Origin: an uncultured Alphaproteobacteria bacterium
Lineage (GTDB): Bacteria; Pseudomonadota; Alphaproteobacteria; RF32; CAG-239
Assembly (NCBI GenBank): GCA_934276635.1
Contig: CAKQTH010000003.1
Location: 3,063 to 67,062, forward strand
Direction: 5' to 3'
DNA length: 64,000 nt
Part shown: positions 44,901-60,494 of the stretch, in pieces
Numbering within the stretch: position 1 is the stretch's first letter
How the letters are laid out: the number at the start of each line of letters is the position of its first letter
Translations under genes and position numbers: made by a program
Notes under the pieces: model-generated
Told to the model about the DNA's origin: nothing
The model's database searches: none
The model's input: only the letters and a program-made list of their open reading frames with translations

Positions 44901-45342
44901 GGTCGCCTCTGAGTTCTTGATTGGAGCATCTTTCTTCATAAACAAATCCGTCCGCCGGAGGGTCAGCCAAATTTACCGCCACAATTCGTATCGCGGTTTT
45001 TCCGTTGGTGCCGATAGTCAAAACATTGTCTGCAGTCGTACCGAGCACAACCTGCCCCATTTCAACCGGATCCGGCGTGGTCGTAATCGGAATTTCGCCT
45101 TCTTCAACATCGGAAAATTCTATATTGTCGGTCAGAACATTCCCCGTATCAAGATTTAGAGCATCATCATTGGCCGTAAATACCGGCTCTTCAAAGGTCT
45201 CTTCCACCGTATTGCTTTGAATAAGCAAAAATACGCCTAAAAAGAAAACCACCATAGAGACTATTCCGACAATCAGAATAATTCTGTTGGTTTTCTTTAT
45301 ATAGGTCTCAGAATGTGTAAGTCTTTGTTCTTCTTTACTCAT
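41908..45342 (-). CDS. N-terminally membrane-anchored repeat protein (1144 aa) built from the same repeat as the VirB10-like protein
   Basis: The track ORF starts at 45363. ATG at 45342 forms an ATGA overlap with the virB9 stop. MSKEEQRLTHSETYIKKTNRIILIVGIVSMVVFFLGVFLLI gives a cytoplasmic tail plus one TM helix. A ~150-aa Cys-containing beta-type domain follows, then ~920 aa of repeats, e.g. VMPDGTVVDKDGNVIGKVMPDGTVVDKDGNVIGK. Confidence 0.85.
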   Translation of the reverse strand: MSKEEQRLTHSETYIKKTNRIILIVGIVSMVVFFLGVFLLIQSNTVEETFEEPVFTANDDALNLDTGNVLTDNIEFSDVEEGEIPITTTPDPVEMGQVVLGTTADNVLTIGTNGKTAIRIVAVNLADPPADGFVYEERCSNQELRGDQTCHITIKWAPIVAGNVQNNFVISWRETNVSDANAKASKVPVYGRAIRKEDCNFCEAPAAESKKATIDKSRVAIGPNGEVIGYIDDDGYVRDENGNIIGRVNSAGMVVDKDGNIIGVADNEKLVYDEFGNVIGKVMPDGTVVDKDGNVIGKVMPDGTVVDKDGNVIGKAVDTGFVYDENGNIIGRVMPDGTVVDKDGNVIGKLNEDGTVVDFDGNVIGRVAKAGKIATDENGNYLGVVMPDGSIVDENGNIVGYVDENGNIYTPVEPVKRRGAYDKDGNLIGYVDENGNVVDFNGNIVGKVNEDGTIVDKDGNVIGKVGDESQLAFDENGNVIGRVMPDGTVVDKDGNVVGKVTADGRIVDANGNVIGVAGQRRKIGALVNTNLIPVAPDGSILGEVANNGDVKNEKGEVVGRLLPNTLIKNPAGSKVIGRGVAGGMVIGWGCRRIGYLEKSGKVIAGKEELPYRVIPDGVILDEQNRYVGQPLKTGRVYDSRCNYLGKAGTDGIVKSDAGNYVGCLNPDGGVLNENGDLVGRVVEHGAGFSYNGEYIGYVNDNGVVVSPAMLPVGCVGVSGDIIDQNGRHIGKILNSKYAFDLKGNFLNFVNDRGEVPVKGKEGMHLAMNNMIIDKDNKVVGVALPEHNPIINAKGQYIGTLFFDGNVYDAAGKSIGKMFGDGKSFYGDIIGVNLPFNSVIDFSGKKIGKVIYDGRVISRFGEQLGYVDAKGTYFDNKGNMKGAMVVSGAAIGYDGSYFGYVVEDGDIADLDGEVQGVATADGKVLNKEGKLVGDVVAEGVAIDVFGDAKGYINALGNVVSLNGENITAVLPGGSTDKNLSLLKRGPVVDFSGNLIGMVLPNGEIADKTGIVIGKMLSDGKAVNSYGKLIGEVLDGDIVIDQKDKVVGFVKYDGTVVSENGDTIGRVLSGGYVIDNQNDILGAIYKIGASVLSNDGTYLGRVNASGRVVSVDGKDIGYIKNNGSFVDLDKKVAGYALQEVAQNRRN
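43850..44560 (-). repeat. Near-identical 51-bp (17-codon) DNA repeats inside the 1144-aa gene
   Basis: The units at 44411-44461 and 44462-44512 differ at 4 of 51 positions. Further copies of ATTGCCGTCTTTGTCAACCACCGTTCCGTC(C/T)GGCATAAC start at about 44308 and 43858. Confidence 0.85.
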
Positions 45343-46976
45343 TGTATCCTTACTACGCTGCAAAATACGCCGTTACGCCCAAGCTGGCTGCAAACTTTGT
45401 CGCCAGCGTCCAAACTTTTTACCGGCCCGACTCTCAAATGAAACAGCTCTTTGCCTTGTCCATCGGCCGGGGCATCAACCGAATAAAACGGCTGATATTC
45501 ACCCAGAACTCCGGAATATTTATCCGACAAATCACTCCAAAGCGTTTCCAAATTCGTTACATTTGCATCTGTGCCGAGTTCAATCGAAATATTTGAGCCG
45601 GAAGCATCAGACAAACCTGAGCCGTAACGATATCCGCTATACGGATTTTGTCCACCGACCGCGCCATAAGCGCCGCCTTGACCAAATCCTTGTCCCTGAC
45701 CTTGTTCGGCACCCCGATTCCAGCCGTATTGTCCTTTCTGTCCGCCCGCATAATCAGCATTATCTCTGACCGGCAATCTTCCGTTCATTGCGTCTTCATA
45801 GCTGATTGAATTTCCGCCGCTGGCATAAGAGTTAACTCCGTTTCCATAAGAGGCTTCTCCACCCTGAGACGAGCCGCCGTATGCTCCGCCGTTGCCGGAA
45901 CCGGAACCGTCTTGTCCGTCAGGCATTTTCGGGCCGACATCCCAGCCGTGTTCCTGATATGTCGGAGAAAATTCGAGCCCCTGATCGTCGGAACGACGCA
46001 ACTTCAGGCAAACAATTCTTTTGCCGTTGCGCAAAACCATATCGCCGATACCCTCAACGATAATCAGTCTGTTGTTAGGACCTTTTGTTCTGAATCCGAC
46101 CGGAGTTTCAATTTTTTCAACAATCAGAGTTACAATCGGGCGCTGTGTCATTGTCAGCGATTTTTCGCCCAAATCAATATATGTGAAAATATCGTCACGC
46201 CATACTCTTTCCGGTGCAATAACCACATCGTCCGGATTCGGCACATAAACTTCTATATCAAAACGGAATTTTGACGGATCCATCGGGATACTCTGAAGCC
46301 AGTCATCTTGTAAAAATCTTTTTGTAAAGCGAGAATCTACCGAGAACGGATTTCCGTTGTTGCTGCTTGCGTTTACATGTCCGCCGCTCTTTATCGGAAC
46401 GCCGCCGGAAGCCTTAGATTTTCCGTTTCCGTCAATAACTTCGATATCAATAATTGAGTTTGTCAGTCTTTCGGTATTAACCCCTTCGCTCTTTACATAG
46501 AACACATATTTATTTCCGCTGCGGCCAAAAACGATAATATTTGTATCAACGCCGACATTGGCGCCTTTCTTCGGATATAGCAACAAGGTATTCGGGCCGG
46601 AAATTTGTCCGTCAAAAGTAGCGCTATCGCCGATATAGATGTCTTCTACCATTTCCCATTCCGGAAAATTGACCAAAGTCATCATACCTTCGCGCAGGCG
46701 CATCGGCAACACCAAATCAGGCGTCCAATAATATTTTGAATAAGCAGGTTTGCTTTGTCCTTCACCCAAATTTTGCAGAGGATCAAGCCACGCGCTTTGA
46801 ATCATGCCCAAAGAGTTGAACCCGGCATATCCCATATCCATCGGGGTATATTGTCCGGTGCTTTGGTCGGCGTTTTGATCAAGGCTTCCGGTAGAAACCT
46901 GTGCCCTTACATTGCCCGTTGCAAACAGAGCAACTGCCAAAATCAAAAATATTTTCCTAAACTGACAAACCATCAT
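45339..46976 (-). CDS. virB9: VirB9-like outer-membrane core protein with Gly/Ser/Gln-rich linker and C-terminal SPOR-like domain (545 aa)
   Basis: Signal peptide [25 protein letters not shown]. VirB9/CagX-type N-domain (…MTLVNFPEWEMVEDIYIGDSATFDGQ…NKYVFYVKSEG…) and C-domain (…IAPERVWRDDIFTYIDLGEK…RLIIVEGIGDMVLRNGKRIVCLKL). The final 85 aa are …LFHLRVGPVKSLDAGDKVCSQLGRNGVFCSVVRIQ. Confidence 0.88.
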   Translation of the reverse strand: MMVCQFRKIFLILAVALFATGNVRAQVSTGSLDQNADQSTGQYTPMDMGYAGFNSLGMIQSAWLDPLQNLGEGQSKPAYSKYYWTPDLVLPMRLREGMMTLVNFPEWEMVEDIYIGDSATFDGQISGPNTLLLYPKKGANVGVDTNIIVFGRSGNKYVFYVKSEGVNTERLTNSIIDIEVIDGNGKSKASGGVPIKSGGHVNASSNNGNPFSVDSRFTKRFLQDDWLQSIPMDPSKFRFDIEVYVPNPDDVVIAPERVWRDDIFTYIDLGEKSLTMTQRPIVTLIVEKIETPVGFRTKGPNNRLIIVEGIGDMVLRNGKRIVCLKLRRSDDQGLEFSPTYQEHGWDVGPKMPDGQDGSGSGNGGAYGGSSQGGEASYGNGVNSYASGGNSISYEDAMNGRLPVRDNADYAGGQKGQYGWNRGAEQGQGQGFGQGGAYGAVGGQNPYSGYRYGSGLSDASGSNISIELGTDANVTNLETLWSDLSDKYSGVLGEYQPFYSVDAPADGQGKELFHLRVGPVKSLDAGDKVCSQLGRNGVFCSVVRIQ

Positions 46977-46987
46977 TTTGTTACCTT

Positions 46988-47740
46988 TTATTGTACTTTA
47001 TTATGCATTAGAGAATATCTTACAACTGTAAATCCTACCGGATTTTTCATTCTTTCGCCATATTTTACGGTTTTTTCGCGATATACAATCCGCAAAGAGG
47101 CTGTCCAATAATTTATCTCCGGAGCGGCAGAGTTCGGATACATATCCTGCGTTTCATACTCAACCTGCCACAATCCGCTGTCAAGTTCGTTAACCGTCAG
47201 AATTCTGACCATACGAATAATGCCCTTTGTTTGAATAATTTTGAGCGCGCGTTTGGCTGTTTTTTCCAAAAAATCAGCATACACGCCGGAAGACGACATC
47301 TCTTGAATCATTCCACCGGGCATCCAACGCGCTTCCATTTCCTGTAAATCAGAATCAAAAGAGCTGCGGTTCAGCACATATTCGCGCACAAACGCTTCCG
47401 TAATGGATTTTCTGTCTTCCATTTTTCCGTTAATCGGAACAATGTTATAAACTTGTTCATCTTTGCTTTGAAAAGTCAACAAAAACGGTTCAACACGATA
47501 AAGCGGAATAAGCTGCATAATCGCAATCAGCAAAACAAGATTGCAACAAAGGCTTATTGCGGTCACAACCGCAAAGGCTCTGGCAGTCCACAGATATCTT
47601 TTTTCGCTGGCATTAACCAAAACCGCATCTTCACTGGCCTTAACTCTTTTACGCGGAGCAGACGAAGGGCGTTGAGCAGTCGGTCTTCCGTTGCCTATCA
47701 ATCGTGTGTTAACACCGTTATTGTTAAAATTTTCTGCCAT
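46988..47740 (-). CDS. virB8: VirB8-like protein, copy adjacent to virB9 (250 aa)
   Basis: Bitopic: basic N-tail, TM helix (…AFAVVTAISLCCNLVLLIAIMQLI…), then a periplasmic domain ending …YWTASLRIVYREKTVKYGERMKNPVGFTVVRYSL, the typical VirB8 C-terminus. Confidence 0.88.
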   Translation of the reverse strand: MAENFNNNGVNTRLIGNGRPTAQRPSSAPRKRVKASEDAVLVNASEKRYLWTARAFAVVTAISLCCNLVLLIAIMQLIPLYRVEPFLLTFQSKDEQVYNIVPINGKMEDRKSITEAFVREYVLNRSSFDSDLQEMEARWMPGGMIQEMSSSGVYADFLEKTAKRALKIIQTKGIIRMVRILTVNELDSGLWQVEYETQDMYPNSAAPEINYWTASLRIVYREKTVKYGERMKNPVGFTVVRYSLMHNKVQ

Positions 47741-47756: not shown

Positions 47757-47945
47757 CTATAATGTTTCAACAAACCAATCAGGAAGAGAATTTATAAGCT
47801 CTACCTGCATACAAGCGCACGGAGAAAGTTTAAGTTCGTTAAGCGCACGGCCAACGCCTACCGGTTCGCTTTCATAATATGAACCGAAAAGCGAACAAGA
47901 AGTCAAACCAAGCACCAGAACTAAAAGAAATACCTTCTTAAACAT
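47757..47945 (-). CDS. virB7: VirB7-like small lipoprotein (62 aa)
   Basis: I start it at ATG 47945: MFKKVFLLVLVLGLTSC, a lipobox with Cys. Its small size and position between the two virB8 genes match the rvh layout. No sequence-family check was possible. Confidence 0.6.
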   Translation of the reverse strand: MFKKVFLLVLVLGLTSCSLFGSYYESEPVGVGRALNELKLSPCACMQVELINSLPDWFVETL

Positions 47946-48092
47946 CTTGATGTTCCTATATAAAATATGTCCAGACAATATTCAGTTTAGACCTTTTTTT
48001 TTAAAAGTCTAACCCGAAGCCGATAAATCCCCAACTTATCAACAGCTTGAAGCTTATACCGAAAATATTAATATATGATAAATTTTATAAAA

Positions 48093-48842
48093 TTATAGGA
48101 CTTCGACCTCGGTTTGCGAATATCTGACCACCGTAAAGCCCAACGGGTTAAACAATCTGACGCTCATAAGCTCGCGGCCACGAATAAAATATGCGGTCAT
48201 AGAAGCTGTCCAATACTTTGTTTTCAAAGGAATTTCTCCGGTCCTAAGGTCTCTGGCCTGAGGATTCAACTCATAAGTCTTAAAGTCGATTTTCCAAACC
48301 GGAGAATTTTCTCCGCCCTGCTTTCCGACCGATATAATTTCAACCTCGCGAGAAGCTCCGGAATCTCTGACGGACTGCCATTCCGCTTTTCTTTGCTTGT
48401 CAAACTCATCAAAAACATTCTGCATCGACAAAAAGTGAACCCAGCCGCCTGCAAACCATCTGATTTGCATCTCTCTTTCATCGTTAATCAGCGAGTTGCG
48501 TATAATCACATATTGCTTTACAAAAATTTCCATCAGCTGCTTTTTAGAGGCCATATTATACTCTATCGGCTCGTGGCGCACAAGCCCGTCGGTCGCATCC
48601 TGTTTAACAATCAAAAACGGTTCGACTTCAACCCTAGGCGCCATTCGAAACAGCACCAAAGAGGCAGCCATAAACACAATAAGAGAAACGGAAGCAAACA
48701 AAATGAGCAAACGAGCCAACCACTTATAATAATTTTCTTTCAAAGTGGAAAGCCGGCCGTCAACTTCGGTCGCATACGCGCGCTGCGGCTCAGAATTTTT
48801 GTTTTCATTCGTAATTGCTAAAATTTTTGTTCCGTCATTCAT
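48093..48842 (-). CDS. virB8: VirB8-like protein, second paralog (249 aa)
   Basis: Same architecture as the other copy (TM helix …LLILFASVSLIVFMAASLVLF…; C-terminus …YWTASMTAYFIRGRELMSVRLFNPLGFTVVRYSQ). Confidence 0.88.
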   Translation of the reverse strand: MNDGTKILAITNENKNSEPQRAYATEVDGRLSTLKENYYKWLARLLILFASVSLIVFMAASLVLFRMAPRVEVEPFLIVKQDATDGLVRHEPIEYNMASKKQLMEIFVKQYVIIRNSLINDEREMQIRWFAGGWVHFLSMQNVFDEFDKQRKAEWQSVRDSGASREVEIISVGKQGGENSPVWKIDFKTYELNPQARDLRTGEIPLKTKYWTASMTAYFIRGRELMSVRLFNPLGFTVVRYSQTEVEVL

Positions 48843-48851
48843 CTCTTATCC

Positions 48852-51800
48852 TCAATCTACGGCATAATTTGCACAATACGGCTGAACTCCGCCCTTCATC
48901 TCATTGGCAAAGGCTTCTTCCTCTTGCTTTTTATATTCTTCGCTGGCTTTGCGGTTTACCTGCTCGGATATAACTTTTTGAGCAAAATCTGCCGAATTTC
49001 CGTCCGTATCTTCACCGACAACCACCACTTCTTCATTGTCTTTTACCAAAGCGGCATACATTCCTTTGAGCTTTTTGAATTTTTCTTTCAAATACTCGTT
49101 GTTTTCTTCCTGCATTCCGCTCAAAGAAGAATATGCTGTTTTCAGGTTTTTATTCTTGATGGATTCCATCGCCTGCGCAACCTGATTATAATCGGCGTCT
49201 ATTGCCAAATCCAAATCCGGTTTCGGAGAAAATCCGGCTTTTTTCAGCGATTCAATAAGGCTTTCTCTTAAAGCATCGACCTCTTCTTTGAGTTCTTCCT
49301 GCGCCTGCAATGTCGTCTGTTCGTTTTCGGCCAAAGTCAAAAAGTCTCCGAATTGGTTGCGGTTGAGCTGCGCACGATATTTTATAGCCATACTGTTGCT
49401 AGTCTTTTTGCTTTCAGTTGCGTCTCCGCCGTCCTCGTCCTTATCGATTTTATAAAAAGTATCTTTCGCACCTTTTGTAATCATAATAAAGCTCTTGCCG
49501 AGCTGTTTCGATGCCGAGAACAACAAGCCCATCTCGCTGCCTCTTTCTTTCGAACTGCTATAAGCATATCCTCTGTCCGCGAATATTTTATCATTAAAAT
49601 CAACATCTCCCTGAGCTTTGGCATATACCTTATCCGAAACCGTGTCCTGAACGCCTCCGCCCGGTTTCATAGGCGACGGCTTTGTTTGACTCAAATATAT
49701 TTCCTGACAATTCGGAATTTTTTCAAAGCTTTGTTTCGGCGCTCTGCGGCTCAAAATATATCCGTTTTTAGTTACTGCCGTTGTCGCCGGTATTTTGATA
49801 TCAACATAATAGTCGCCCATTTTGCACGGATAAATTCCGCTGCGGAAAAATTCTATATTTTTCTTATCATCTCTCGGGCTTCCCAATCCTTCGGTTCCGT
49901 TTTCCGTCGAAAACAAATTGTAGCTTTCTTCCACATACGAGTGCAAATCAAGCATTCTTTGCCAAATTTCCGGCATATTTGATACACTCTTCAAAATTGC
50001 GTCTTTGGTAACTTTTTTGCCGGTATAAGTATTTTTGTCATCATAACCATAACTTTTCGGCATATTTACATAGTCATCAACATCAAAATATATAATCTCG
50101 CGCATCGGCGGCAGATATTCCTGCGCGGCAACACGCGGAGCCTTAAAGTCTCGCGCCACTGGATACGCCCCGACGAAAAAGTCGGTATCGGCATTCAAAC
50201 AAACATTGTTTTCACAAACCTTATCCATCACATATTTTTGCAGAATTGATTTTGCAAGACTAATCATTCTATCCGTCCGATATCCCTTTGTTATTAAAGA
50301 TGTCAAAATAGAGGTTTGCGGATTTTTCAGTTCATCAATAAGTTCCTTATGAATCTTCATAAGTTCTTTGTGTCCGGCCGGAGTATAGATATAGTTATCG
50401 TCCTTTTTGCGCAATGCTTTAATTTTTTCTTCTGCACAAATTATTCTGTCTTTTGCATAATCCAAAACTCCGTTCCATTTATGCGAAGAAAAATCGGCTT
50501 TCGCTGTGCAGCTTCCGGCAGACGGGGTTCCGACAATATCGTCCACAATACCGACAAATTTTAAGATATATTTGTTTCTGTCAACAGTGTTTGTGTATAT
50601 TTTTTTATACATCTTTGCCAAACCGCCGTTTTTGTTTCTGCTGTCGAGCGTATTATTTTTTTGTTTTTGGATTTCTCCGTCAGCTCCGCTATAATATTCT
50701 TCTATATAAAGAATTTTGGCATCGGTACAAGCGTAGCTTTCTACATTATTACATTCCTTTTGCTTTTCAAGGCTGCATTGGTCCAAACTTTTTTTGCAGG
50801 TGTCCGGATCATCATTAAGCTTTTTCTTGTTTGCGGCAATCTCATTTTCCAATGTGGTAATTTGCTGTTGCAAAACAGACATCTGCTTATTTGCAACCGT
50901 CAGCTGCGCGTTAGTCTTTTCCAAAGTACTTTGGCTTTGTGCTTTGGTTTCTTTTGCATATATAGCCTGTCCTGATTTTTTATCTTTGGAAATTTCCTGT
51001 CTTTTGGCCACAATTTCCAGATTGTTATCCATATCCGTGATTGTGCCTTCAGCCTCTTTTTTTGTATCTTTCAGGTTGTCAATCGTTGTCTGAAGCTCGT
51101 TCTTTTGCGTATACAGTTTTTCGAGCTGGGTTGTTATCGCTTTATTCTTATTTTCCAAAGATCTCCGCGCTGTTTCTCCGGTGTTTTTAACACCTTGAAT
51201 TAACTGGTTCTTAGCGCTTACCAATTCGGCTAATTTTTTGTTGGCAAAAAAGTTTGTCGTGTAATCATATTTTCGACCGTTCAGCTTAGTTTTAAACTCA
51301 CTGAAGGCAGATCTCGCTTTTTCTTTTTCCTTATCATTTTTGTCATCGTCTTCATCATATCTTGTTCTGGAAACAAGCTCCGACATCATATCAATTCCGG
51401 TTCCGGTCAGCGCTGTCAATGTCTTGCCGTCGTCGTTTTCGTCCATATCAAAAAACGGCCATACATCGTTCAGATACAATTTCATATTTTGATATTTTTT
51501 CTCAAGATATTGATCATAGAATTTTTTCTGGTCATTCCATATCGGAAACTTGCGTTTCGGCTTGCCCCAGCTTTGCGTTGTATATTGATCCTGCGCCAGC
51601 TTTTTGGCCACCGCCGCGCCAATAAGGAAATTAAACTTATCTTTCAGGTGTTCGTTCTTTTTTATCTGCTCCTGACGGCTCGGAGAACCGGCTCCGGCAA
51701 CCGAGCTTGAACCATCGGAATCTTCATCGCTGGAGTGCTTTTGTTTCAATTTTGCCTTAGAATTTTGCACCGTTGCATCAACATCTTCACCGGTGTCGTC

Positions 51801-53549
51801 TTCGGCATCAAAATCGCTCTTTTCCAAATCATCGGGAGAAATATCGTCGCTTTGCAGTGCTTTTGCGGTCTGAAACGCCTTATAAGCCCAGCCGGAGACA
51901 CCCTTTCTGCTTGCATAATCAGTCACATTTGCAGGCGCGGCGCCTCCGTACCAAACTTTCGCACCGCTCGGATAATATCGATCCAAATAATTTACGGCAC
52001 ATTTGTCCGAGGTCTTTACTTTTTCAACTGCCAGATTGTGTCTTTTAACCGCGCGCTGATAGCTGACGAAAGCCTCACGAAAACTCGGCAGCGATTGTTT
52101 CAAATTGTGTGCAGTCATTGATTTTCGCATAGTTTCGGCAACGGCTTCAAGCTCTTTTAATTTTCTGAATTCTTCCTCAGATCCGGTAAAGGCCGATTCG
52201 ATATCCGGCTTTTCGGCTGTTTCGTATGTCAGTGTTGAATTTGCCTTTACATCAAATTTATAATCGCCGAAAAACTCCTTGTCTTCCTGCTCAGTTTCGT
52301 CTTTTGTAACCATCTTGTTACTTGCTGTCGACGAGCTTGACAAAGCGGACTTTGTCTCGTTTTTCAAAAGCGTATTTGTTGCCGTCGGAATCGCCACCTT
52401 AGAAGACAATGCCGGAGATTGAGCCGAAACAGCTGCGGCAGCATTTGATCTTTGCAAAGCCGATGATGCCGATGTCATCGGAGATACCTCAACAGACTGT
52501 GTAACCTTGCGGAATGCCGGCTTGTCGGCAGAAAGTTTCTGCTGCGGCAATGCTTGCTTTGCATTTGCCGAATTCTTGATTTCAGTCGCCGGAGCCGCAG
52601 CTGTTGTCTTCATATCTGCCGCTTTTGCCTGAGTTGCAACAACATTTGCTGCCATAGCCTTATTTTGCGGTTTAAGCTCTGCCGCATATCCCATTGCAAA
52701 AGTTTTTGAATACGGCTCAGACTGAGCATATGTCGGCATTTTGAACAATTTTTCATCAAGCGCCGAGCTCTTCTTGGATTTCTTTCCTTTTCCGCCGCCT
52801 TCAACAAATTCGGCCGGTTCGACCATCTCGTCCAAAAACTTTGCGGCATAGTATTGTGTGCGCATAACCGACAATGTTTCCGCAAGCTTTAACAACTCGT
52901 CAATTGTGCCGTATGCATCGTACGAGGAAACCAAAGCAGCCACAATCTCTCCGTCGCCTTTCGATTCGCCCTCTTCACCGCTTGCCCCGCTTGCAGATGC
53001 GGCCATCTGGCTTTGCGTGTCGGCAAATGCCTCAACTTTGTCTTCCATTTCTTCAATCTGCATATCAAGCGCACGGACGCTGACATACAATTCTACAATA
53101 CTGTCCGTCACAAATTCGCGCGATTTTTTGCGATATGCGCTCTTGATATCCGAATCGGTGCTCGGATATGCCAAAAACAGCTGATGGATGACTTCTGCAA
53201 CCTTTTCCGGATCTTTTCGGTCTTCTTTGCTGAGCAATTTTGAGCGTTTTCCCATTGTTTTCATAGAAGACAGAGGTTTCGGCTTGCTTGATGTCCCGAC
53301 AAAGAAATTTGAATTAACAGAATTGGAAATCGCCTTTTTTGCCGCGGTATATTTATCTTTAATCGCCGTTTTGACTTTGTTGATTTTTGTTTTAACGCCC
53401 TGAATATTCGTCGACACATCTTTAACCACGGCACCGGCATCTGCAACAACGCCCTGTATTGCGGAAATAAAGTCAAGCGCCCGAGCATCTCCGGCGGAGA
53501 TATAAATTGCAAATATTGCGGAAATAACAATTTTTATGCATTTATTCAT
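48852..53549 (-). CDS. Giant secreted protein (1565 aa): signal peptide, Ala/Ser/Thr-rich region, long coiled coil, Cys-containing globular C-terminal half
   Basis: Signal peptide MNKCIKIVISAIFAIYISAGDARA. No internal hydrophobic helices, so it is not VirB6. GGAG lies upstream of the ATG. Gaps to both neighbours are 9-12 nt. Confidence 0.85.
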   Translation of the reverse strand: MNKCIKIVISAIFAIYISAGDARALDFISAIQGVVADAGAVVKDVSTNIQGVKTKINKVKTAIKDKYTAAKKAISNSVNSNFFVGTSSKPKPLSSMKTMGKRSKLLSKEDRKDPEKVAEVIHQLFLAYPSTDSDIKSAYRKKSREFVTDSIVELYVSVRALDMQIEEMEDKVEAFADTQSQMAASASGASGEEGESKGDGEIVAALVSSYDAYGTIDELLKLAETLSVMRTQYYAAKFLDEMVEPAEFVEGGGKGKKSKKSSALDEKLFKMPTYAQSEPYSKTFAMGYAAELKPQNKAMAANVVATQAKAADMKTTAAAPATEIKNSANAKQALPQQKLSADKPAFRKVTQSVEVSPMTSASSALQRSNAAAAVSAQSPALSSKVAIPTATNTLLKNETKSALSSSSTASNKMVTKDETEQEDKEFFGDYKFDVKANSTLTYETAEKPDIESAFTGSEEEFRKLKELEAVAETMRKSMTAHNLKQSLPSFREAFVSYQRAVKRHNLAVEKVKTSDKCAVNYLDRYYPSGAKVWYGGAAPANVTDYASRKGVSGWAYKAFQTAKALQSDDISPDDLEKSDFDAEDDTGEDVDATVQNSKAKLKQKHSSDEDSDGSSSVAGAGSPSRQEQIKKNEHLKDKFNFLIGAAVAKKLAQDQYTTQSWGKPKRKFPIWNDQKKFYDQYLEKKYQNMKLYLNDVWPFFDMDENDDGKTLTALTGTGIDMMSELVSRTRYDEDDDKNDKEKEKARSAFSEFKTKLNGRKYDYTTNFFANKKLAELVSAKNQLIQGVKNTGETARRSLENKNKAITTQLEKLYTQKNELQTTIDNLKDTKKEAEGTITDMDNNLEIVAKRQEISKDKKSGQAIYAKETKAQSQSTLEKTNAQLTVANKQMSVLQQQITTLENEIAANKKKLNDDPDTCKKSLDQCSLEKQKECNNVESYACTDAKILYIEEYYSGADGEIQKQKNNTLDSRNKNGGLAKMYKKIYTNTVDRNKYILKFVGIVDDIVGTPSAGSCTAKADFSSHKWNGVLDYAKDRIICAEEKIKALRKKDDNYIYTPAGHKELMKIHKELIDELKNPQTSILTSLITKGYRTDRMISLAKSILQKYVMDKVCENNVCLNADTDFFVGAYPVARDFKAPRVAAQEYLPPMREIIYFDVDDYVNMPKSYGYDDKNTYTGKKVTKDAILKSVSNMPEIWQRMLDLHSYVEESYNLFSTENGTEGLGSPRDDKKNIEFFRSGIYPCKMGDYYVDIKIPATTAVTKNGYILSRRAPKQSFEKIPNCQEIYLSQTKPSPMKPGGGVQDTVSDKVYAKAQGDVDFNDKIFADRGYAYSSSKERGSEMGLLFSASKQLGKSFIMITKGAKDTFYKIDKDEDGGDATESKKTSNSMAIKYRAQLNRNQFGDFLTLAENEQTTLQAQEELKEEVDALRESLIESLKKAGFSPKPDLDLAIDADYNQVAQAMESIKNKNLKTAYSSLSGMQEENNEYLKEKFKKLKGMYAALVKDNEEVVVVGEDTDGNSADFAQKVISEQVNRKASEEYKKQEEEAFANEMKGGVQPYCANYAVD

Positions 53550-53561
53550 CTTATTTCTCCT

Positions 53562-54890
53562 CTAGAATTGTTCGGATATTGACGATGCCGTATCTTTTGC
53601 GGAATCTATCCCGCTTTTTACATCCGATACCGCGTTTTTAACACCGCTCACACTGAGTTTTTTCTTGCTTTTCTTAATCCCTTGAGCATCTTTTTTCGTA
53701 AAGATGTAATCATCAAAGTTAAAGTTCTCTTTGTGCTGATATTCGTATGGCATATTAATCATGTCATTGGCGGTCATCATCTTTAAATCTGCCGACATCA
53801 ACTTGATATAATCAAGCAAAATATGCATAATCTGAACCCTGATGCCCGAAGTTTCAATCAACAACGCGCCGGTCTGGCTGTCTGTCTCTATAACGCTCTT
53901 TTTTAGCTCATCTAAAGTTTTTTCGTTGGATTCTATATTATTTTTAATGCGCAGCGCATCAATGTAAGCATTCAAGGTATCTTCACCGGCTGCTTTTTTA
54001 CGATTGTTGCTGATTTGCGAGAGCAAATCTCCGCCGACCGGATTTCCTTCCGCAATAAAGTTCTTTTCCGCAGCCTCGCCATATCCGCCGTCGCCGCCGC
54101 TGAGCATTCCTGCCAATTTATCAACCGCTTTGTTTCCGACATCTTTTCCTTTTGACAGTGCCTTCTGAGACAACTTTTCAACTTCTTGTTCCTTGAGCTT
54201 TATATCTTCTTTTGCAGTGCTTTTCTGCTGTTCAAAAGACTGATACTTCTCCGACCGCTCGATTGCTCCCTTTTCGCTCTCAAGCTCCGCAATAGAGGCA
54301 TTATTTTTTTCCATCTGAGCCTTACGGAATTCAGCGTCCTCATCTTCTCCCATTCTTGAAAGAGTATTGTTGTTGTCTTCAAGAACCTTAATTTGCGCGT
54401 CTATTCTTTGTTTTTCGGAAGAAACATAATCGCTCTGTTCTTTTTCAAGCTTGGTCAACGCATCTTTGGATTCTTTCAAAGTTGCCACAGCCTCGGCCTG
54501 CTTTTTCGCATCTTCAGCCTTATCTTTTGCATTTTTTGCATCACTGAGTGCTCCGCTTGCGGTATTTTTCGCATCGCTGACTACCTGTTTTGCATCATCA
54601 ACCGTCTTTTTTACATCGTCAATTTTTTCTTTTGTATTCTTATAAAATTCTTTGGCCTTTTTGATTTTTTCAGAAGATTCCATGGCTCCTTTTAGGCCTT
54701 TTTTTATGGTCTGATATTTTTCAGCAATCGGCTCAACAACTTTTTGCACATTTTCCGAAGCCTTTGTAACAAAGTCCGAAATTTTTCCGGCCGCACGCCC
54801 GAAATCGATATTAATCATCGCAGATGACGGGGTTGCAAAAACCATGCACACTAAAAACAAAACAGCAGCAATAACTCTCAGCTTTTTCAT
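53562..54890 (-). CDS. Secreted helix-rich, Lys/Glu-rich protein (442 aa)
   Basis: Signal peptide MKKLRVIAAVLFLVCMVFATPSSA with GAGGAGG upstream. A heptad-like charged sequence runs through most of its length. Confidence 0.85.
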   Translation of the reverse strand: MKKLRVIAAVLFLVCMVFATPSSAMINIDFGRAAGKISDFVTKASENVQKVVEPIAEKYQTIKKGLKGAMESSEKIKKAKEFYKNTKEKIDDVKKTVDDAKQVVSDAKNTASGALSDAKNAKDKAEDAKKQAEAVATLKESKDALTKLEKEQSDYVSSEKQRIDAQIKVLEDNNNTLSRMGEDEDAEFRKAQMEKNNASIAELESEKGAIERSEKYQSFEQQKSTAKEDIKLKEQEVEKLSQKALSKGKDVGNKAVDKLAGMLSGGDGGYGEAAEKNFIAEGNPVGGDLLSQISNNRKKAAGEDTLNAYIDALRIKNNIESNEKTLDELKKSVIETDSQTGALLIETSGIRVQIMHILLDYIKLMSADLKMMTANDMINMPYEYQHKENFNFDDYIFTKKDAQGIKKSKKKLSVSGVKNAVSDVKSGIDSAKDTASSISEQF

Positions 54891-54892
54891 TA

Positions 54893-55588
54893 TTATTCCT
54901 CCTCTTTGTCCTTAGAACCATATTTTTCGGAATCCGCGATTATATAAAAATTATATATTTGTGCTTCGGTTGAAACAATATAGTTCAATCGTCTGATAAT
55001 CGACCGAATACGCGGCCCCTGCGCATCAACCGCTTCTTTCATATTATTTATGGTTGCCGGTTTTGATTTGGCCTCTTCTTCGGCATCGTCCAAAAGCTCA
55101 TTGCGGCGCACAAATGCCGATGCATACATATTTGCGGCCATATTTCTTTTCAGCTCATTGAACATATCCATTTTTTCCTGATATTGCTCAGATGTAATAT
55201 CTTCCGGAAAAACATATTTTTCTTCCAAATTATTTTCAAAATCGTTGCTGTTTATGACAGACCCCAAACCTGACATAAGCTGTGTTCCGGCCGCTTTCGG
55301 ATCTTTTGCCAGCTCATAAGCGCTTTTACCCTTTTCGGCCAAATCTTTGCCTTTTTCATAGGCGCTTTTTCCTTTATCAATCCCTTCTTTGGCAATATCC
55401 GTAACAGCGGTAACCTGATTGATGTTTTCTTGCACGGTAGAAACGACTTCTTCTTTGAATGCCGAAGCTTTTTCCATATATCCTTCAACTTTTTCAACAA
55501 CAAAATTCAGCGAATCCGGCATTGGGATTTGCGCATTTGCCGAACCGGCCGCCAGAATCATCAAAAACGCAACAACATATTTATTCAT
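54893..55588 (-). CDS. Secreted helical protein (231 aa), VirB5-size
   Basis: I start it at ATG 55588 (AAGGAGG upstream), which overlaps the upstream stop by 8 nt. Signal peptide MNKYVVAFLMILAAGSANA/QIPMPDS…. Confidence 0.8.
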   Translation of the reverse strand: MNKYVVAFLMILAAGSANAQIPMPDSLNFVVEKVEGYMEKASAFKEEVVSTVQENINQVTAVTDIAKEGIDKGKSAYEKGKDLAEKGKSAYELAKDPKAAGTQLMSGLGSVINSNDFENNLEEKYVFPEDITSEQYQEKMDMFNELKRNMAANMYASAFVRRNELLDDAEEEAKSKPATINNMKEAVDAQGPRIRSIIRRLNYIVSTEAQIYNFYIIADSEKYGSKDKEEE

Positions 55589-56255
55589 TATTGCTTCCTC
55601 CTTCTTCGACCAGCTCTTTGATATATGAAGCATCATATGCCGACAAATATTTCAAAGCCTTATTCATAATTTCGGTTGACAATACTTTGTTCAAATGGCT
55701 GTTCAGCACAATTGCAAAATCATAATCCGCCTCAGCCAAAACCGCAATATCCTCACGAATATTGGCCGCGCCGTTTTCGTTTCCTTCTTCACCGCTTTTG
55801 TTGTCCGAAAGATTGATTCCGAGCATTGAGCCGGAACCGATATCACCGAGTGCGCCCAAAGCGGAATCGCTGTCTCCGTTTCCTTTTTCTTCAAATTCTT
55901 TAACTACGGTATCTTCAAAATTTGAGGCATAAATCCCTTCAGCAACCATTGTTTTCAAGGTTTCCAGCTTGCTTTGCGCCGCCATTTCCGTAAAAGTTTC
56001 GCCGACGCTCCTCGAGCTTTCCACCGTATCATTTCTGTCTTTAAGCAGCTTAGAGAGACACTCTTTTGTAGCCTTTGCCGCTTCATCGGTATCCTGCATC
56101 TTGATTTTGCAGCTTTCCGCCATAATTTTCGGAATTATATAATCACCGTTGGCGGCCATTCCGGTTGCAACATTTGATGCGCCGCTGATATCGGTGTCTG
56201 CGGCGCTTGCAGCTGCGGCAATCAGAAATGTCATTAAAAAAGCCGAATATTTCAT
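55581..56255 (-). CDS. Secreted helical protein (224 aa), VirB5-size, paralogous to the C-terminal part of the 476-aa protein
   Basis: Signal peptide MKYSAFLMTFLIAAAASA. GDYIIPKIMAESCKIKMQDTDEAAKATKECLSKLLKD aligns without gaps to GNIILPKSLAAYCEMTIDEVEKDTDRLEECLKKVLAK in the 476-aa protein, with 11 of 37 residues identical including both Cys. Confidence 0.8.
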   Translation of the reverse strand: MKYSAFLMTFLIAAAASAADTDISGASNVATGMAANGDYIIPKIMAESCKIKMQDTDEAAKATKECLSKLLKDRNDTVESSRSVGETFTEMAAQSKLETLKTMVAEGIYASNFEDTVVKEFEEKGNGDSDSALGALGDIGSGSMLGINLSDNKSGEEGNENGAANIREDIAVLAEADYDFAIVLNSHLNKVLSTEIMNKALKYLSAYDASYIKELVEEGGSNNE

Positions 56256-56276
56256 TGTATCTTTTCTCCTCGCCTT

Positions 56277-57707
56277 TTATTTTTCTTCAAAAACAAAATC
56301 TTCTATGCCGTCAAGCTCGTTATATCGGCCGTAAATCGTGCGCAGCCAAACATAATCGTTTGCAACTTTCGCCATTTCTATCGCCTGATGCGCCGAAACT
56401 GTCATACTACTGCGGACTTCCGTTGCCCCATCTGCGGCCTCCTGCAAATCGGCTATAACTTTTTCCTCATAGTTTGCCGCCTTATTTGCCGCTTTAACAA
56501 TCATACTCATCGCGCCGAAAGTGTTGTCTTTGCGAAACTCCAAAAGCTCATCGGTAGAAACGCCTGCTTCCGTGCTGCCGTCTTCGCTTTCCTTTGCCAA
56601 AACTTTTTTGAGGCATTCCTCAAGCCTGTCAGTATCTTTTTCCACTTCATCAATCGTCATCTCGCAATAAGCCGCCAAAGATTTCGGAAGAATAATATTT
56701 CCGTTGCCGGCGCGGCCGGTTTTAAGCTTTGACTGTTTTTCCGTGGTCTCGAGCAAGTCTGCCGACGCAATCACACTCTTTTGTTCGTAAAAAAAAATAT
56801 ATTCATCGGCGGAAGATTGTTTTTGCATTTTTCTGAACGCTTTTTTTTCGGACACCGGCGCCACCGATTTTACATTTGCTTTAGCATCGGAAAGAGCCGG
56901 ACTTTTAGCGACCGTGGCCCTATCCAAAGCTGCAGGTTTTGCCTCTTGTGCGGCTTTGAGCCCACCGGCGGCATCTGCTTTCGGCATAGCCTTAGGTTCT
57001 GAAATTGCTGAAACATTTTCTTTTTGCGCAGCCGGAGCTTTGAGCGTCTTATCGGCAGAAACCGGCGCTACCTGCATCACATTATTCGGTCTGTTTTTCA
57101 AAAACTTATTGCTTGCCGCCGGCTGAAGTTCTTCAACGGAATTGTCGCTTTCATCTTCTTCCTGCTCTACTTCTTCGGCAGTTGCTTCATCATCTTCCGG
57201 CGGGGTCAAAAGCTCATCGCCTTCCGCCAGATCATTTGCGCCGTAACTTTTTTCGGCAGAGCTGAACAGTGATTTATTTTCATCTTTATCCGCAAGAATA
57301 CCGGCTCTTTCCTGCGCCATTTTAACGCCGTCTTCCGTAGCATCTTTAAGAGCCTTTGCTTTTTCTACCTGAGCCTCGGCAAAACCTTTGTATTCTTCAT
57401 ATTGTTCTTTGTATTCCTCAGCCTGTTTTCTCATTTTTTCAACTTCGGCCATTTGATCTTTTGCCTCATTTGTAAATTTTGAAACCGTACTGACGGCATC
57501 ACCGATGCTGGAACTAACTTTTGCGACCGTTTTGGTTGTTTCCACAATAACTTTGCTCGACTTAATTTGCTCAATACCGCTCTTTATGGCCTGTACGATA
57601 GATGAAGTATCAAGCGTCGGAAGAGGAATAAACGCATAAGATTTCGGAGCAAAAAGTATTGTTGCCAAAACAACAACTGAACTGAAATATAAAGCGGTCT
57701 TCTTCAT
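56277..57707 (-). CDS. Secreted helical protein (476 aa) with a VirB5/TrbJ-like mature N-terminus
   Basis: I start it at ATG 57707 (GGGAGAA upstream). Signal peptide MKKTALYFSSVVVLATILFAPKSYA/FIPLPTLDTSSIVQAIKSGIEQIKSS. It has an acidic, Ala-rich middle region, and its C-terminal module is shared with the 224-aa protein. Confidence 0.8.
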   Translation of the reverse strand: MKKTALYFSSVVVLATILFAPKSYAFIPLPTLDTSSIVQAIKSGIEQIKSSKVIVETTKTVAKVSSSIGDAVSTVSKFTNEAKDQMAEVEKMRKQAEEYKEQYEEYKGFAEAQVEKAKALKDATEDGVKMAQERAGILADKDENKSLFSSAEKSYGANDLAEGDELLTPPEDDEATAEEVEQEEDESDNSVEELQPAASNKFLKNRPNNVMQVAPVSADKTLKAPAAQKENVSAISEPKAMPKADAAGGLKAAQEAKPAALDRATVAKSPALSDAKANVKSVAPVSEKKAFRKMQKQSSADEYIFFYEQKSVIASADLLETTEKQSKLKTGRAGNGNIILPKSLAAYCEMTIDEVEKDTDRLEECLKKVLAKESEDGSTEAGVSTDELLEFRKDNTFGAMSMIVKAANKAANYEEKVIADLQEAADGATEVRSSMTVSAHQAIEMAKVANDYVWLRTIYGRYNELDGIEDFVFEEK

Positions 57708-57784
57708 TTTGTTTCTCCCAAAAGCATCAGATGATAAATAATAACATACAAAATATCTTTGATAAAGATTTTTTTGCAAAATCG

Positions 57785-60214
57785 CTACAAATTTAAATAT
57801 TTTGTAACAAAGTTCTCTTCTCCGTATTCCTTAATCAGCTGTTCAACCAGCAAAACATTTTTTCGGCTGGAGTTGTAGAGCCTCAAATACGGTCCCAAAC
57901 CACCGAGGTTTACATCAAGAATCACGGATTCGCCGGTTGCCGGTCTTGAAAGCAAAATCGCATACGGAAAATCGCGATATGTCTTACCGAAAATAAAATC
58001 CATTTCGTTTTGCGTCAGATTCCAAGTCACATAATCTTCCAATCTGGCTTGCGGGTTGCGGAAGAATAAAACGGTCTGACATTGTCCGCGAATAACCTCG
58101 CCGACGCCGAGTTTGTCAATAACATTCGGCTGTTGAAATGCGCAAAGATATGACTGGCGTTTTTTACGGCCTTCTTGCAAACCGATAATAAAGTAATCTC
58201 TAAACATCGGGTGCTTAAGCATCGGCGCCGTTTCATCGATCATAATCAGAGACGGAACGCCGGTTTCGCCGGTTTCGCTTTGAATTCGGTGCATAATATA
58301 TGAAATAACCGCCGGAGCCAAGGTGTCGTCCTCAAAAATATGCGTAAAGTCAAATGCCATAAATCTTTTTGCCTTCAAGTCCAAACTATCGGTTTCGGCA
58401 TTAAAAATGTTTCCGTATTGATCCGGATTAACCCAGCGATACAATTCCCGTCTCATATTTCCGGTCGGTGAAAAACAGCTTTTATAAAGATTTTTCATAA
58501 CTCTTTCTTCCGGACGCAGATAGTCAAACGCGGTTGTAACCGCTCGCGCGATTTCCTTTTCGGACAATGCGTCGTCAACCATTGTGATAGACTTCATCCA
58601 GCGACGCAAAAATGCGCGGTTGTTCGGCGTATCTTCGGCATCAAACGGGTTAAGCGACACATTTTTTTCGTCGCCGTCAAACCCGATATACGCTCCGCCG
58701 ATTGAACGAGTAAAGATTTCAGCACCGCGGTGGCGGTCAAAGAAGAACACTTTCAAATCGCCGTGGCGCATCGCCTGTCCGGCCAAAAATGTAAGCAAAG
58801 TAGTTTTACCTTGTCCGGTAGGACCGATAATACAGCAGTGAGCAACGGCAGCTTCTTCGGCAGATACATGGAATTGGAACTGATAGGCTGAACCGGAAGT
58901 TGTTCTGAACACGCTGATTGCGCCCGGACCCCAGTCGGATTTCGAAAAACCTTCTGACGGTTTGTCAAAGCATATGGCCATTGCCACAACGCGGGACAAA
59001 TAGCGATATGTTCTCGGATATGTTTCATAAGTCGGAAACTGTGCAAAAAATGTTGCCTGAGCAACCCAGCCCTCACGAACCGGCGTCACACCGAACAAAC
59101 GGCAGATTCTCTGCACTTCACTTTCGGCAAAATCGATTTCTTCTTTGCTCGAACCTCTCAATATAATAGACATAGAATATTCGACCAGAGCCTGATAATC
59201 GGCGTCGCTGTCCTCAATTGAAGACAAAGCCTGCGCATATTGGCCGATAACCTCGTCCGAAAAGCTTGTAATGGTCGCCATTCTCTGTTGTTGCATCAAA
59301 AGCATACGCGCCTGAGCCTTAAAAATCGGCTTTACATTGTGCAAAAGCACCATTTCGCTGTCAATCGAAAGCAGCGAAACTATCATACTTTCGTCCATAT
59401 AATCGCCCGATGTTCTGATACCCATACAAATTTCGTACATTTCTTTATCGCCGGAGAAAAATCTGATAACTCCGTTTTCTCCGGTAAAATGAATATGATC
59501 AGCAGTCAAAAGCTCATTAAACGCGGCGCCTTCGGCTTTTCCGACCTTAGGTTCCGGATTGGAAAGCGGGCTGCAAAGCTTTGAAAAGATATACAGAGGG
59601 CTTTCGGTTGCCGGACTGTCAACCGTTTCATAAAGATTTTTCACTCCGTAATCGTTCAATGTCGCAAGTAGCGCCTGAGATGCATAGTTCAAGTCTTTTA
59701 AGGCATCTTTTCGGTCTTCAATAGACAAGATGATGTAGTGGCGGTTATGATAAATTCTATCCAGATTGGCATCCCAAGTTGCCGAAACTTCTTCCAAAAC
59801 CTTATTATTAAAGTCGCCACCGTCAACATTGTTCGGGATTCTTTCTCTGAGCGTAACAACGCGGCAGATAACCTGCAAATCCGACATACCGTCAATCCAA
59901 GATTTGCGGGCTTCCATCATTGAATAAATTTTTTCTTCGGTTGCAAACGACAAATCCGCACCTTCAACCTTAAACACGCGGGCAAATGCACCGTTTTTGC
60001 ACCTGATGGTGATTCCGTCCGACATCAGCCTGAAAAACGGCAAAAAGTCCGAAACGCGGGATTCTCTCGGCTGCGGCAACACCCAAGCTCCGAATCTTGT
60101 TGCCCACAAAACCGCAAAAGCAGATGCCGAAACAAATCCGATTACGGCAATCATAACCTCGAGGTTGGTTAACCCTTGTGTAAAAATACTGAAAAAATCA
60201 AAATTAGGGCTCAA
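57785..60214 (-). CDS. virB4: Type IV secretion ATPase VirB4
   Basis: 809 aa with Walker A IIGPTGQGKTT and Walker B …SLIMIDETAP…. Overlaps virB3 by 11 nt. Confidence 0.93.
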   Translation of the reverse strand: MSPNFDFFSIFTQGLTNLEVMIAVIGFVSASAFAVLWATRFGAWVLPQPRESRVSDFLPFFRLMSDGITIRCKNGAFARVFKVEGADLSFATEEKIYSMMEARKSWIDGMSDLQVICRVVTLRERIPNNVDGGDFNNKVLEEVSATWDANLDRIYHNRHYIILSIEDRKDALKDLNYASQALLATLNDYGVKNLYETVDSPATESPLYIFSKLCSPLSNPEPKVGKAEGAAFNELLTADHIHFTGENGVIRFFSGDKEMYEICMGIRTSGDYMDESMIVSLLSIDSEMVLLHNVKPIFKAQARMLLMQQQRMATITSFSDEVIGQYAQALSSIEDSDADYQALVEYSMSIILRGSSKEEIDFAESEVQRICRLFGVTPVREGWVAQATFFAQFPTYETYPRTYRYLSRVVAMAICFDKPSEGFSKSDWGPGAISVFRTTSGSAYQFQFHVSAEEAAVAHCCIIGPTGQGKTTLLTFLAGQAMRHGDLKVFFFDRHRGAEIFTRSIGGAYIGFDGDEKNVSLNPFDAEDTPNNRAFLRRWMKSITMVDDALSEKEIARAVTTAFDYLRPEERVMKNLYKSCFSPTGNMRRELYRWVNPDQYGNIFNAETDSLDLKAKRFMAFDFTHIFEDDTLAPAVISYIMHRIQSETGETGVPSLIMIDETAPMLKHPMFRDYFIIGLQEGRKKRQSYLCAFQQPNVIDKLGVGEVIRGQCQTVLFFRNPQARLEDYVTWNLTQNEMDFIFGKTYRDFPYAILLSRPATGESVILDVNLGGLGPYLRLYNSSRKNVLLVEQLIKEYGEENFVTKYLNL

Positions 60215-60494
60215 ATTTATTCCCCTTCTGTTTGTATAGGTTAGTAGATGTTTTGTTTGTTTGCCCGTAGGCCTGAATCATTGCGGAAAGGTGAGGCTCT
60301 TTGGTTCCGGCCATAATACACAGACAGTGGCCGAGCACGATTGTCACCATAAACATAAGCGGGTTTATATTAAACGCTCCGACGCAAATGAACATAAAAG
60401 GAAACTGCAGACCCAAATTCAACAAGGTCGGCAGGAAAGGCCCCCATAATATTTTCGGAGGATTTGCTACGGCTTTCAGTATCATTTCGTGCAT
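60204..60494 (-). CDS. virB3: VirB3-like small inner-membrane protein (96 aa)
   Basis: Two hydrophobic helices, the right size, and a position immediately upstream of and overlapping virB4. AGAGGG lies upstream of the ATG. Confidence 0.75.
   Translation of the reverse strand: MHEMILKAVANPPKILWGPFLPTLLNLGLQFPFMFICVGAFNINPLMFMVTIVLGHCLCIMAGTKEPHLSAMIQAYGQTNKTSTNLYKQKGNKFEP

Follow-up and report, generated by a model that had tools for sequence, protein, structure and literature searches.

In the Rickettsiales rvh type IV secretion system (T4SS) five VirB6 paralogues lie between virB4 and virB8, and in the Helicobacter Cag system the tandem genes for CagH, CagI and CagL encode proteins with a shared C-terminal motif, of which CagL is taken as the VirB5 counterpart. 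VirB5 and VirB6 form the central stalk for pilus growth and substrate passage and are the least conserved and least understood parts of T4SSs. In R388, VirB5 forms a pentameric stalk tip with its N-termini projecting outward; VirB5 superposes on ClyA, and CagL has been called a VirB5 homologue (PMC9259494). In conjugative elements of Bacteroides the genes for DUF4141 proteins lie between traG (VirB4) and traJ (PMC10434189). Here we analysed a VirB-type T4SS operon in a 64-kb stretch of DNA (the window) from an uncultured alphaproteobacterium of the RF32 lineage (contig CAKQTH010000003.1), in which virB4 is followed by five genes for exported proteins. Coordinates are positions in the window, and the five proteins are named p476, p224, p231, p442 and p1565 by their length in amino acids (aa).

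The proteins p476, p224, p231 and p442 are a mosaic of two modules and not four copies of VirB5. Judged from sequence, p476 appears to combine both modules, p442 to have the N-module, p224 just the C-module and p231 a remote form of it, and p476 is by position and N-terminus the predicted VirB5 counterpart. We favour, as the probable explanation, that the four are exported, helical, non-membrane subunits of a divergent, vertically inherited VirB-type (IVA) T4SS, assembled from two recombining modules and with p476 in the role of VirB5. The first-pass annotation had seen here a diversified family of VirB5-like subunits. The position and N-terminus of p476 and the sharing of modules survive from that proposal, while uniform VirB5 paralogy does not, as the likeness to VirB5 is confined to the first ~20-60 residues of the mature p476-family proteins. 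Modules are shared, but the pairings differ from those proposed: the C-module links p476, p224 and p231, and the N-module links p476 and p442.

The four tandem open reading frames (ORFs) of 476, 224, 231 and 442 aa and the 1565-aa ORF behind them are real genes, as the ORFs themselves, separate gene calls on a conspecific contig (476/224/231/449/1579 aa) and substitution rates indicate. All five lie on the minus strand. The ORF at 56277-57779 yields p476 from an ATG at 57707 (gene 56277-57707), and the ORF at 54893-55636 yields the 231 aa of p231 from an ATG at 55588 (gene 54893-55588). Compared with the conspecific strain, the ratio of nonsynonymous to synonymous substitution rates (dN/dS) is 0.12 for p476, 0.04 for p224, 0.08 for p231, 0.05 for p442 and 0.13 for p1565, versus 0.01 for virB4 and 0.02-0.04 for virB8, with dS of ~0.19-0.22 for the five variable genes and ~0.15 for virB4 and infB. 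Since dN/dS lies at 0.04-0.13, the five genes have to be real and constrained, and gene-wide positive selection on the variable block was rejected. Purifying selection acts on them but is relaxed compared with the core genes, and p476, p231 and p1565 have 3-10 times the core dN/dS. Lengths vary among conspecific strains (the window versus contigs L091 and L092), with 442 versus 449 aa for p442 and 1565, 1573, 1577 and 1579 aa for p1565, which indicates indel or repeat polymorphism within one species.

GGAG-type Shine-Dalgarno sites precede all five starts, and Sec signal peptides were found in p476, p224, p231, p442 and p1565; the sites and the peptides quoted in the first-pass annotation are present. 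Its statement that further hydrophobic helices are missing was also confirmed, since in each of the five proteins the N-terminal hydrophobic core alone exceeds 1.4 on the Kyte-Doolittle scale. All four smaller proteins thus share with VirB5/TrbJ a Sec signal peptide and, as predicted, a soluble exported form.

For a broader view, a genome scan with VirB4 gave 249 matching stretches, of which 80 loci were kept (L001-L080), all from distinct GTDB representative genomes. They belong to uncultured gut Alphaproteobacteria or to mislabelled bins of metagenome-assembled genomes (CAG:495, Ca. Scatocola and others), and record names in the clade include 'Proteobacteria bacterium CAG:495' and 'Ca. Scatocola'. 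One layout is common to the ~70 loci that are long enough: virB3, virB4, 2-5 signal-peptide ORFs, a giant of 1200-1650 aa, and virB8. Families were set by position and BLAST clustering, with A as the first ORF after virB4 (p476), B of ~230 aa (p231), C of ~420 aa (p442) and D as the giant (p1565), and with stand-alone p224-like proteins (P224), E379, F168 and A-short as lineage-specific extra families. Family A is always encoded by the gene next to virB4, its orthologues being 443-807 aa long. Stand-alone p224-like copies occur in ~20 of 70 loci, and full-length p442 orthologues of ~25% identity in 45.

The likeness to VirB5/TrbJ is concentrated in family A. Among the four genes only that of p476 directly follows virB4, an arrangement found alike in the window, in the ~70 loci and in the plasmid controls. 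In p476 the signal peptide (aa 1-25) is followed by the N-module (aa 26-138; 57294-57632), with the mature start FIPLPTLD and then long helices. Of 62 family-A members, 50 (81%) have a P-x-Φ-D motif (Φ, hydrophobic residue) directly behind the signal peptide, versus a background of 1.5%, where background means elsewhere in the same proteins and ranges from 0.3 to 2.7%. The motif is found in 88% of A-short, in 37/71 of family D (52% versus 2.7%) and in 17% of family C; 59% of C members show the variant ΦKΦD, and p442 itself has the ΦKΦD/INID form. At this position the motif is present in 0% of families B (0/46), P224, F168 and E379, and p224 lacks it as well. The first-pass annotation had regarded two (F/Q)IP(L/M)P starts as VirB5/TrbJ-like; this is borne out for p476 by its orthologues, whereas the 'QIPMPD' start of p231 is an individual match that is not common to its family.

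We read the N-termini of 23 annotated VirB5/TrbJ genes from plasmids and built profiles of 10 and then of 21 sequences. The mature proteins begin with QIPVTD, GIPVFD, GIPVIDG, GIPVIDGTNLSQN, QIPVTDGASIAQQ, GIPVFDGT, GIPVIDGTNLSQNI or QVVVEDPGVLAN. Family A offers QWPTLD, LIPTVD, MIPVIDGTSIANTI and LIPVTDPGTLAQTI, typically (I/W)P(T/V)ΦD, and p476 has FIPLPTLDTSSIVQAI; the p476 family therefore shows the IPV(T/F/I)D-type mature N-terminus followed by a long helix. With signal peptides kept, HHalign aligned the A N-terminus to VirB5/TrbJ at a probability of 94.3% (all HHalign percentages are probabilities), but control families reached 55-89%, which shows the share of the signal peptide in this score. 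With signal peptides removed and the alignment anchored, the A N-module still reached 82.6% over 58 columns versus 3.2% for the reversed null. The same comparison gave 4% for C, 15% for D and 0.4% for B, and signal-peptide-free C, D, B and P224 all stayed at or below 15% against the VirB5 profiles. When full-length profiles were compared, only A residues 12-30 aligned, to VirB5 residues 1-19 (16.6%).

Curated families add sub-threshold matches to this. TrbJ (NF010452) was matched in 5/80 family-A members at the N-terminus (best E 1.2e-4) and DUF4141 (PF13605) in 5/49 at positions 11-58, with 21.7 bits versus a threshold of 30. PF07996 had no match in the 137 family members scanned with Pfam. 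The remaining Pfam/NCBIfam matches of the four proteins and 137 orthologues are coiled-coil noise. A PDB profile search of family A found TraC (1R8I) with its N-terminal region at E 4.7e-4; since the match covers a coiled-coil part and lies among helical noise, we give it little weight alone. The p442 family yielded only coiled-coil-type matches (SMC, Rad50, syntaxin).

Such helical matches also bear on the idea that the proteins act as secreted effectors or toxins, such as an alpha-pore-forming toxin (alpha-PFT) of the multi-component ClyA type, and simply share a transcript with the T4SS. Tandem signal-peptide helical paralogues do recall tripartite alpha-PFT operons, the p442 family weakly matches MakE and Nhe L1 (E ~1e-3), and Foldseek listed AhlC, ClyA and SmhB at E >=1 and probability <=0.28. 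On inspection, however, the MakE and Nhe matches turned out to be generic and to stand amid SMC and syntaxin noise, no member has the hydrophobic head or beta-tongue segment of the ClyA family, and in every species the genes are fixed between virB4 and virB8 within the T4SS operon. Since VirB5 itself superposes on ClyA (PMC9259494), weak ClyA-type matches do not discriminate. We regard a toxin function as very unlikely.

Relations among the families were tested by HHalign with signal peptides stripped and with reversed templates as nulls. This approach was adopted because jackhmmer, which linked all families to each other, was distrusted, and its linkage was rejected as drift along signal peptides and coiled coils. 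With plain BLAST the single link is between p224 and the C-terminus of p476 (28% identity, 103 aa, 42 bits). The match covers p476 aa 326-427 and, according to blastp, has one single-residue gap in each sequence, so that the alignment described in the first-pass annotation is real but not strictly gapless; it does contain the motifs quoted for it (IIPK..A..C-x15-ECL and A(S/A)N(F/Y)E(D/E)xV). HHalign supports the relation of A and P224 with 99.4% versus 0.4% for the null. The A C-module and family B are related at 94.1% versus 0.5% (88.1% when led by p231), and p231 fits the B family at 96.8%. Likewise, B and F168 were linked at 98% (null <=0.5%) and C and C2 at 99.9%. A relation of A to E379 was rejected, its 97.6% being no better than the null of 95.6%.

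The C-module of p476 (aa 321-476; 56280-56747) consists of a short hairpin with two Cys, C348 and C365, followed by a helical bundle and an acidic tail. Both Cys are conserved at 90% or more, and the p224-family alignment has conserved G32, C49 and C66. The gene for p224 (55581-56255) encodes a signal peptide and a stand-alone copy of the module, and p231 is composed of a signal peptide, an N-terminal helix and the putative remote version of the module with an acidic tail. Such tails end 35/62 A, 26/46 B, 11/14 F168 and 7/20 P224 proteins and are rare elsewhere (4/54 C, 3/71 D and 3/91 VirB8 proteins). As the tails track the C-module, they support its grouping independently. Tails such as ...FVFEEK and ...GSKDKEEE might be a docking or recognition tag.

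The N-module gives a different pairing. Signal-peptide-free and anchored, the N-termini of A and C aligned at 94.2% over 85 columns versus 1.4% for the reversed null, and those of A and D at only 40%. The gene for p442 (53562-54890) accordingly encodes a signal peptide, an N-module akin to that of p476, a central coiled coil and a conserved C-terminal domain. The C-terminal likeness of p231 and p442 that had been noted earlier is weakly supported: B and C reached 40% versus 1.2%, and A and C at the C-terminus 57% versus 11%, both of which are marginal.

In light of these pairings it is doubtful that all four proteins and p1565 form a paralogous, diversified VirB5 array, similar to the amplified surface components of host-adapted T4SSs. 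The recurrence of the N-terminal motif in A, C and D and the A-C N-terminal alignment would fit an array, as would the helicity and signal peptides of all members and the jackhmmer links, prone to drift as these are. Against this, p224 and the B family have no N-module, the families other than A hardly resemble the VirB5 profiles once signal peptides are removed, the C-module has no VirB5-like fold match, and the relations are modular instead of whole-length. In addition, with 442-1565 aa they differ widely in size from VirB5, which has ~230 aa.

An AlphaFold2 (AF2) model of p476 was built from an 80-sequence alignment. Between the modules lies a linker (aa 139-320; 56748-57293) that is low-complexity, rich in A/K/E/P/S, predicted to be disordered and variable in length between species; in the model aa 138-299 form a disordered linker without secondary structure, at a predicted local distance difference test (pLDDT) score of 29-55. 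The C-module (aa ~325-470) reaches a pLDDT of ~90 and consists of a short hairpin with the two conserved Cys and then five helices; because of this score we consider it a folded domain. Foldseek against the PDB gave a best E of 0.69 for its fold, with no TraC, TrwJ or CagL, and the C-module profile had no match among PDB sequences. The comparison with VirB5, TraC and TrbJ by profile and structure, which the first-pass annotation had suggested, thus gave no VirB5-like fold match for this part, and no family threshold was reached either. The two-Cys C-module is predicted to be a new, clade-specific folded domain; in the examined loci it has no other context than this T4SS. Some family-A orthologues of 787-807 aa (P0003, at 12513-14936 of L014, and P0002) have a GAF domain (E 4e-10) between linker and C-module; GAF is a small-molecule-binding fold and unexpected in an exported T4SS protein. 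One sub-lineage (L076 3278-5744; L080 2893-6432; L077 3246-6812) encodes at least three consecutive VirB5-like N-termini (IPVTD, LIPVLD, GVPVSD, FVTTDV), as if the N-module had been duplicated or shuffled more than once.

The variable block diverges much faster than the rest of the operon. VirB4 is 78-83% identical across 79 related loci, with a median of 80% to the window, VirB3 has a median of 68% (76 loci) and VirB7 and VirB8 53-61%. For the variable-block proteins the median to the window is 25-30%, in partial alignments only, and between species their identity drops to 20-30%. Inside the 90% clusters of p476, p224 and p231 the share of variable sites is 8.5-13.4%, versus 1.2% for VirB4. 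Out of 1.84 billion representatives an exhaustive profile search retrieved only 312 clusters with family A or the C-module, and the family is restricted to the clade. A word-index homologue search returned 1, 4 and 5 matches, the index missing relatives at 20-25% identity and its candidate list being taken up by low-complexity words. A literature search combining RF32 and type IV secretion found nothing, and the sources searched hold no name for any of the four proteins.

We propose the following model for the two modules. The N-module would be defined by (I/W)P-x-Φ-D right after signal-peptide cleavage and a subsequent long helix, a start characteristic of VirB5/TrbJ, and would be present in p476, p442 and many p1565 orthologues. 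The C-module would be a clade-specific helical bundle of ~150 aa, usually with the two-Cys hairpin and an acidic tail, in p476, p224 and remotely p231. After export, the N-modules may co-assemble into a VirB5-like periplasmic stalk tip, or into a tip complex of a pilus or of the cell surface, while C-modules, linkers and coiled coils may be displayed outward as the contact or adhesion part. The step from shared modules to co-assembly at the tip is one that we infer. Outward display would explain why these proteins diverge faster than the motor and the channel core.

Several points weigh against this model and the underlying assignment. The dN/dS values are well below 1, and the divergence may reflect weak constraint on helical and low-complexity sequence and not selection on an exposed surface. 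The N-module similarity spans 20-85 columns, and since some of the alignments had been anchored on the motif itself, the comparison is biased; full-length HHalign against the 10- and 21-sequence VirB5/TrbJ profiles found nothing past the first ~20 residues (<=17%). None of the four has a full-length hidden Markov model (HMM) or structural VirB5 match, and among the four proteins and 137 orthologues no member reached the curated Pfam/NCBIfam VirB5/TrbJ threshold with its whole length. The N-module was modelled at low confidence (p476 aa 34-138, helical, pLDDT 44-71), and p231 and p442 have no usable structure; the AF2 model of p231, from two near-identical sequences, is all-helical and unusable at a pLDDT of 41. 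Finally, the 64-kb window contains no VirB6 gene near p476 to seat a VirB5-like pentamer.

In agreement with the first-pass annotation, neither VirB2 nor VirB6 is encoded in the window, and VirD4 was not found there either. Apart from the virB3-like protein, the multi-transmembrane (TM) proteins of the window are SecY, LptF/G and one unannotated ORF. The latter (22354-23256, plus strand; 300 aa), with five predicted TM segments and no Pfam match, is separated from the T4SS operon by 14 kb. The 420 ORFs that follow virB4 in the 80 loci include no polytopic protein. Clear extra TM-like segments occur only in the VirB8 paralogues, as single anchors, and besides these there are four isolated borderline segments (Kyte-Doolittle 1.65-1.67), three in D giants and one in a C protein. 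By analogy to rvh, the proteins could be divergent VirB6 equivalents, since five genes between virB4 and virB8-virB7-virB8-virB9-virB10-virB11 mirror the rvh order. VirB6/TrbL proteins have at least five hydrophobic helices, however, and neither the four proteins nor their orthologues include a polytopic member; the multiple TM helices that would have pointed to VirB6 are missing. Homology to VirB6 is refuted, and what stands is a positional analogy, so that we consider VirB6 equivalents most improbable. It is also conceivable, if rather unlikely, that the soluble modular helical families A, B, C and D replace the whole VirB2/VirB5/VirB6 axis of pilin, tip and polytopic stalk base, keeping only the N-terminal assembly segment of VirB5 and building a new stalk or filament without VirB6.

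The surrounding operon supports the assignment to a type IVA (VirB-like) T4SS by co-orientation, tight spacing and synteny across species. On the minus strand the order is virB3-virB4-[p476-p224-p231-p442-p1565]-virB8-virB7-virB8-virB9-X-virB10-virB11. Spacing within the five-gene block is -8 to +21 nucleotides (nt), and 9 nt separate p1565 from virB8. The first gene, virB3-like (60204-60494), encodes 96 aa with 2 TM segments and overlaps virB4 by 8-11 nt; since it has no Pfam match at E<=1, its naming rests on position, size and topology. The VirB4 ATPase (57785-60214; 809 aa) matches Pfam CagE_TrbE_VirB (1.8e-13) and NCBIfam VirB4_CagE (2.8e-111, under the curated cut-off). The last gene of the variable block encodes the giant signal-peptide protein p1565 (48852-53549). 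Two virB8 paralogues follow (48093-48842 and 46988-47740; Pfam VirB8 2.3e-13 and 2.8e-21), which enclose a gene for a virB7-like lipoprotein of 73 aa with a weak LPAM_1 lipobox match (47757-47978). Pfam/NCBIfam matches also identify virB9/CagX (45339-46976; 545 aa), a beta-flower/YD-repeat protein of 1151 aa with beta-flower, DUF3659 and YD-like repeats (41908-45363) and virB11 (36695-37663). VirB10 (37676-41905; 1409 aa) has its TrbI domain at aa 1093-1283, after ~1000 aa of beta-flower repeats. The 1151-aa repeat protein between virB9 and virB10 and the giant VirB10 are an expansion unusual for a VirB-type system. Besides a low-complexity stretch rich in G/S/Q, the VirB9/CagX homologue contains a SPOR (peptidoglycan-binding) domain at its C-terminus. 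Since each core component falls under its curated NCBIfam cut-off, the whole T4SS has to be considered very divergent.

These oversized components are relevant to the main rival of our reading. It states that the proteins serve as periplasmic coiled-coil scaffolds or spacers peculiar to the clade, much like the additional Cag parts around CagX/CagY, and that the N-terminal motif is a convergent docking or processing signal. The giant VirB10, the 1151-aa beta-flower protein and the SPOR-tagged VirB9 suggest an expanded envelope-spanning complex, most database matches are to generic coiled-coil families, and the similarity to VirB5 is limited to a short N-terminal stretch. Nevertheless, VirB5/TrbJ proteins share the motif, its place right behind the cleavage site and the gene position next after virB4, the anchored HHalign covers 58 columns and thereby reaches past the motif, and the sub-threshold matches outside the coiled-coil families include TrbJ and DUF4141. 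We therefore judge convergent scaffolds to be unlikely and maintain that p476 is probably the VirB5 counterpart.

The operon is flanked in the window by rbfA and infB upstream and by genes for an ADP-dependent sugar kinase and tsaD downstream; in the window and on the two conspecific contigs (L091, L092) it lies directly downstream of nusA-infB-rbfA. Its conservation in ~80 species and the housekeeping flanks favour old vertical inheritance over a mobile element. The kinase gene adjoining virB11 (35301-36692, plus strand) encodes an ADP-specific phosphofructokinase/glucokinase (PF04587, E 1e-63), an enzyme of a mainly archaeal family that would hence be unexpected in an alphaproteobacterium.

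The clade keeps a conserved motor, with VirB4 at ~80% identity, yet encodes a fast-diverging exported helical mosaic at the stalk position, in which a single protein has kept a VirB5-type N-terminus. It may serve as a natural experiment on the indispensable part of VirB5, which would be the N-terminal segment. The proteins are candidates for a surface or contact role in a secretion system which is itself uncharacterised and has a wide distribution in the gut microbiomes of humans and animals. Should these genomes truly lack VirB6, models of T4SS architecture would need a new variant.

Among described systems, VirB5/TrbJ proteins (TraC of pKM101, TrwJ of R388, TrbJ of IncP) resemble the p476 family in the Sec signal peptide, the gene position after virB4, the N-terminus and the helicity. 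Differences concern the length, p476 being 2-3 times longer, and the disordered linker and novel Cys-containing C-module. Furthermore, in the plasmid loci fetched, VirB5 is nearly always followed by genes for an eex lipoprotein and VirB6, neither of which adjoins p476. DUF4141 proteins hold the VirB5 position in Bacteroides conjugative transposons and their N-terminal 53-residue model matches some family-A members, but these matches lie under the gathering threshold and p476 itself has none. With rvh the locus shares a chromosomal P-type T4SS, a duplicated VirB8 around VirB7, several large genes between virB4 and virB8 and an operon in which no VirB2 or VirB5 is annotated; the large genes of rvh encode polytopic VirB6 paralogues, whereas those described here encode soluble signal-peptide proteins. 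Cag chains were absent from the PDB profile matches at E<=10 (queries A1-A4, of which A4 is the p224-family alignment). The Cag system is nonetheless similar in its tandem exported helical proteins, one of them VirB5-like, in a shared C-terminal element and in an oversized VirB10. In contrast to Cag, the shared element is here a 150-aa domain and not a hexapeptide, and the hosts are commensal gut Alphaproteobacteria.

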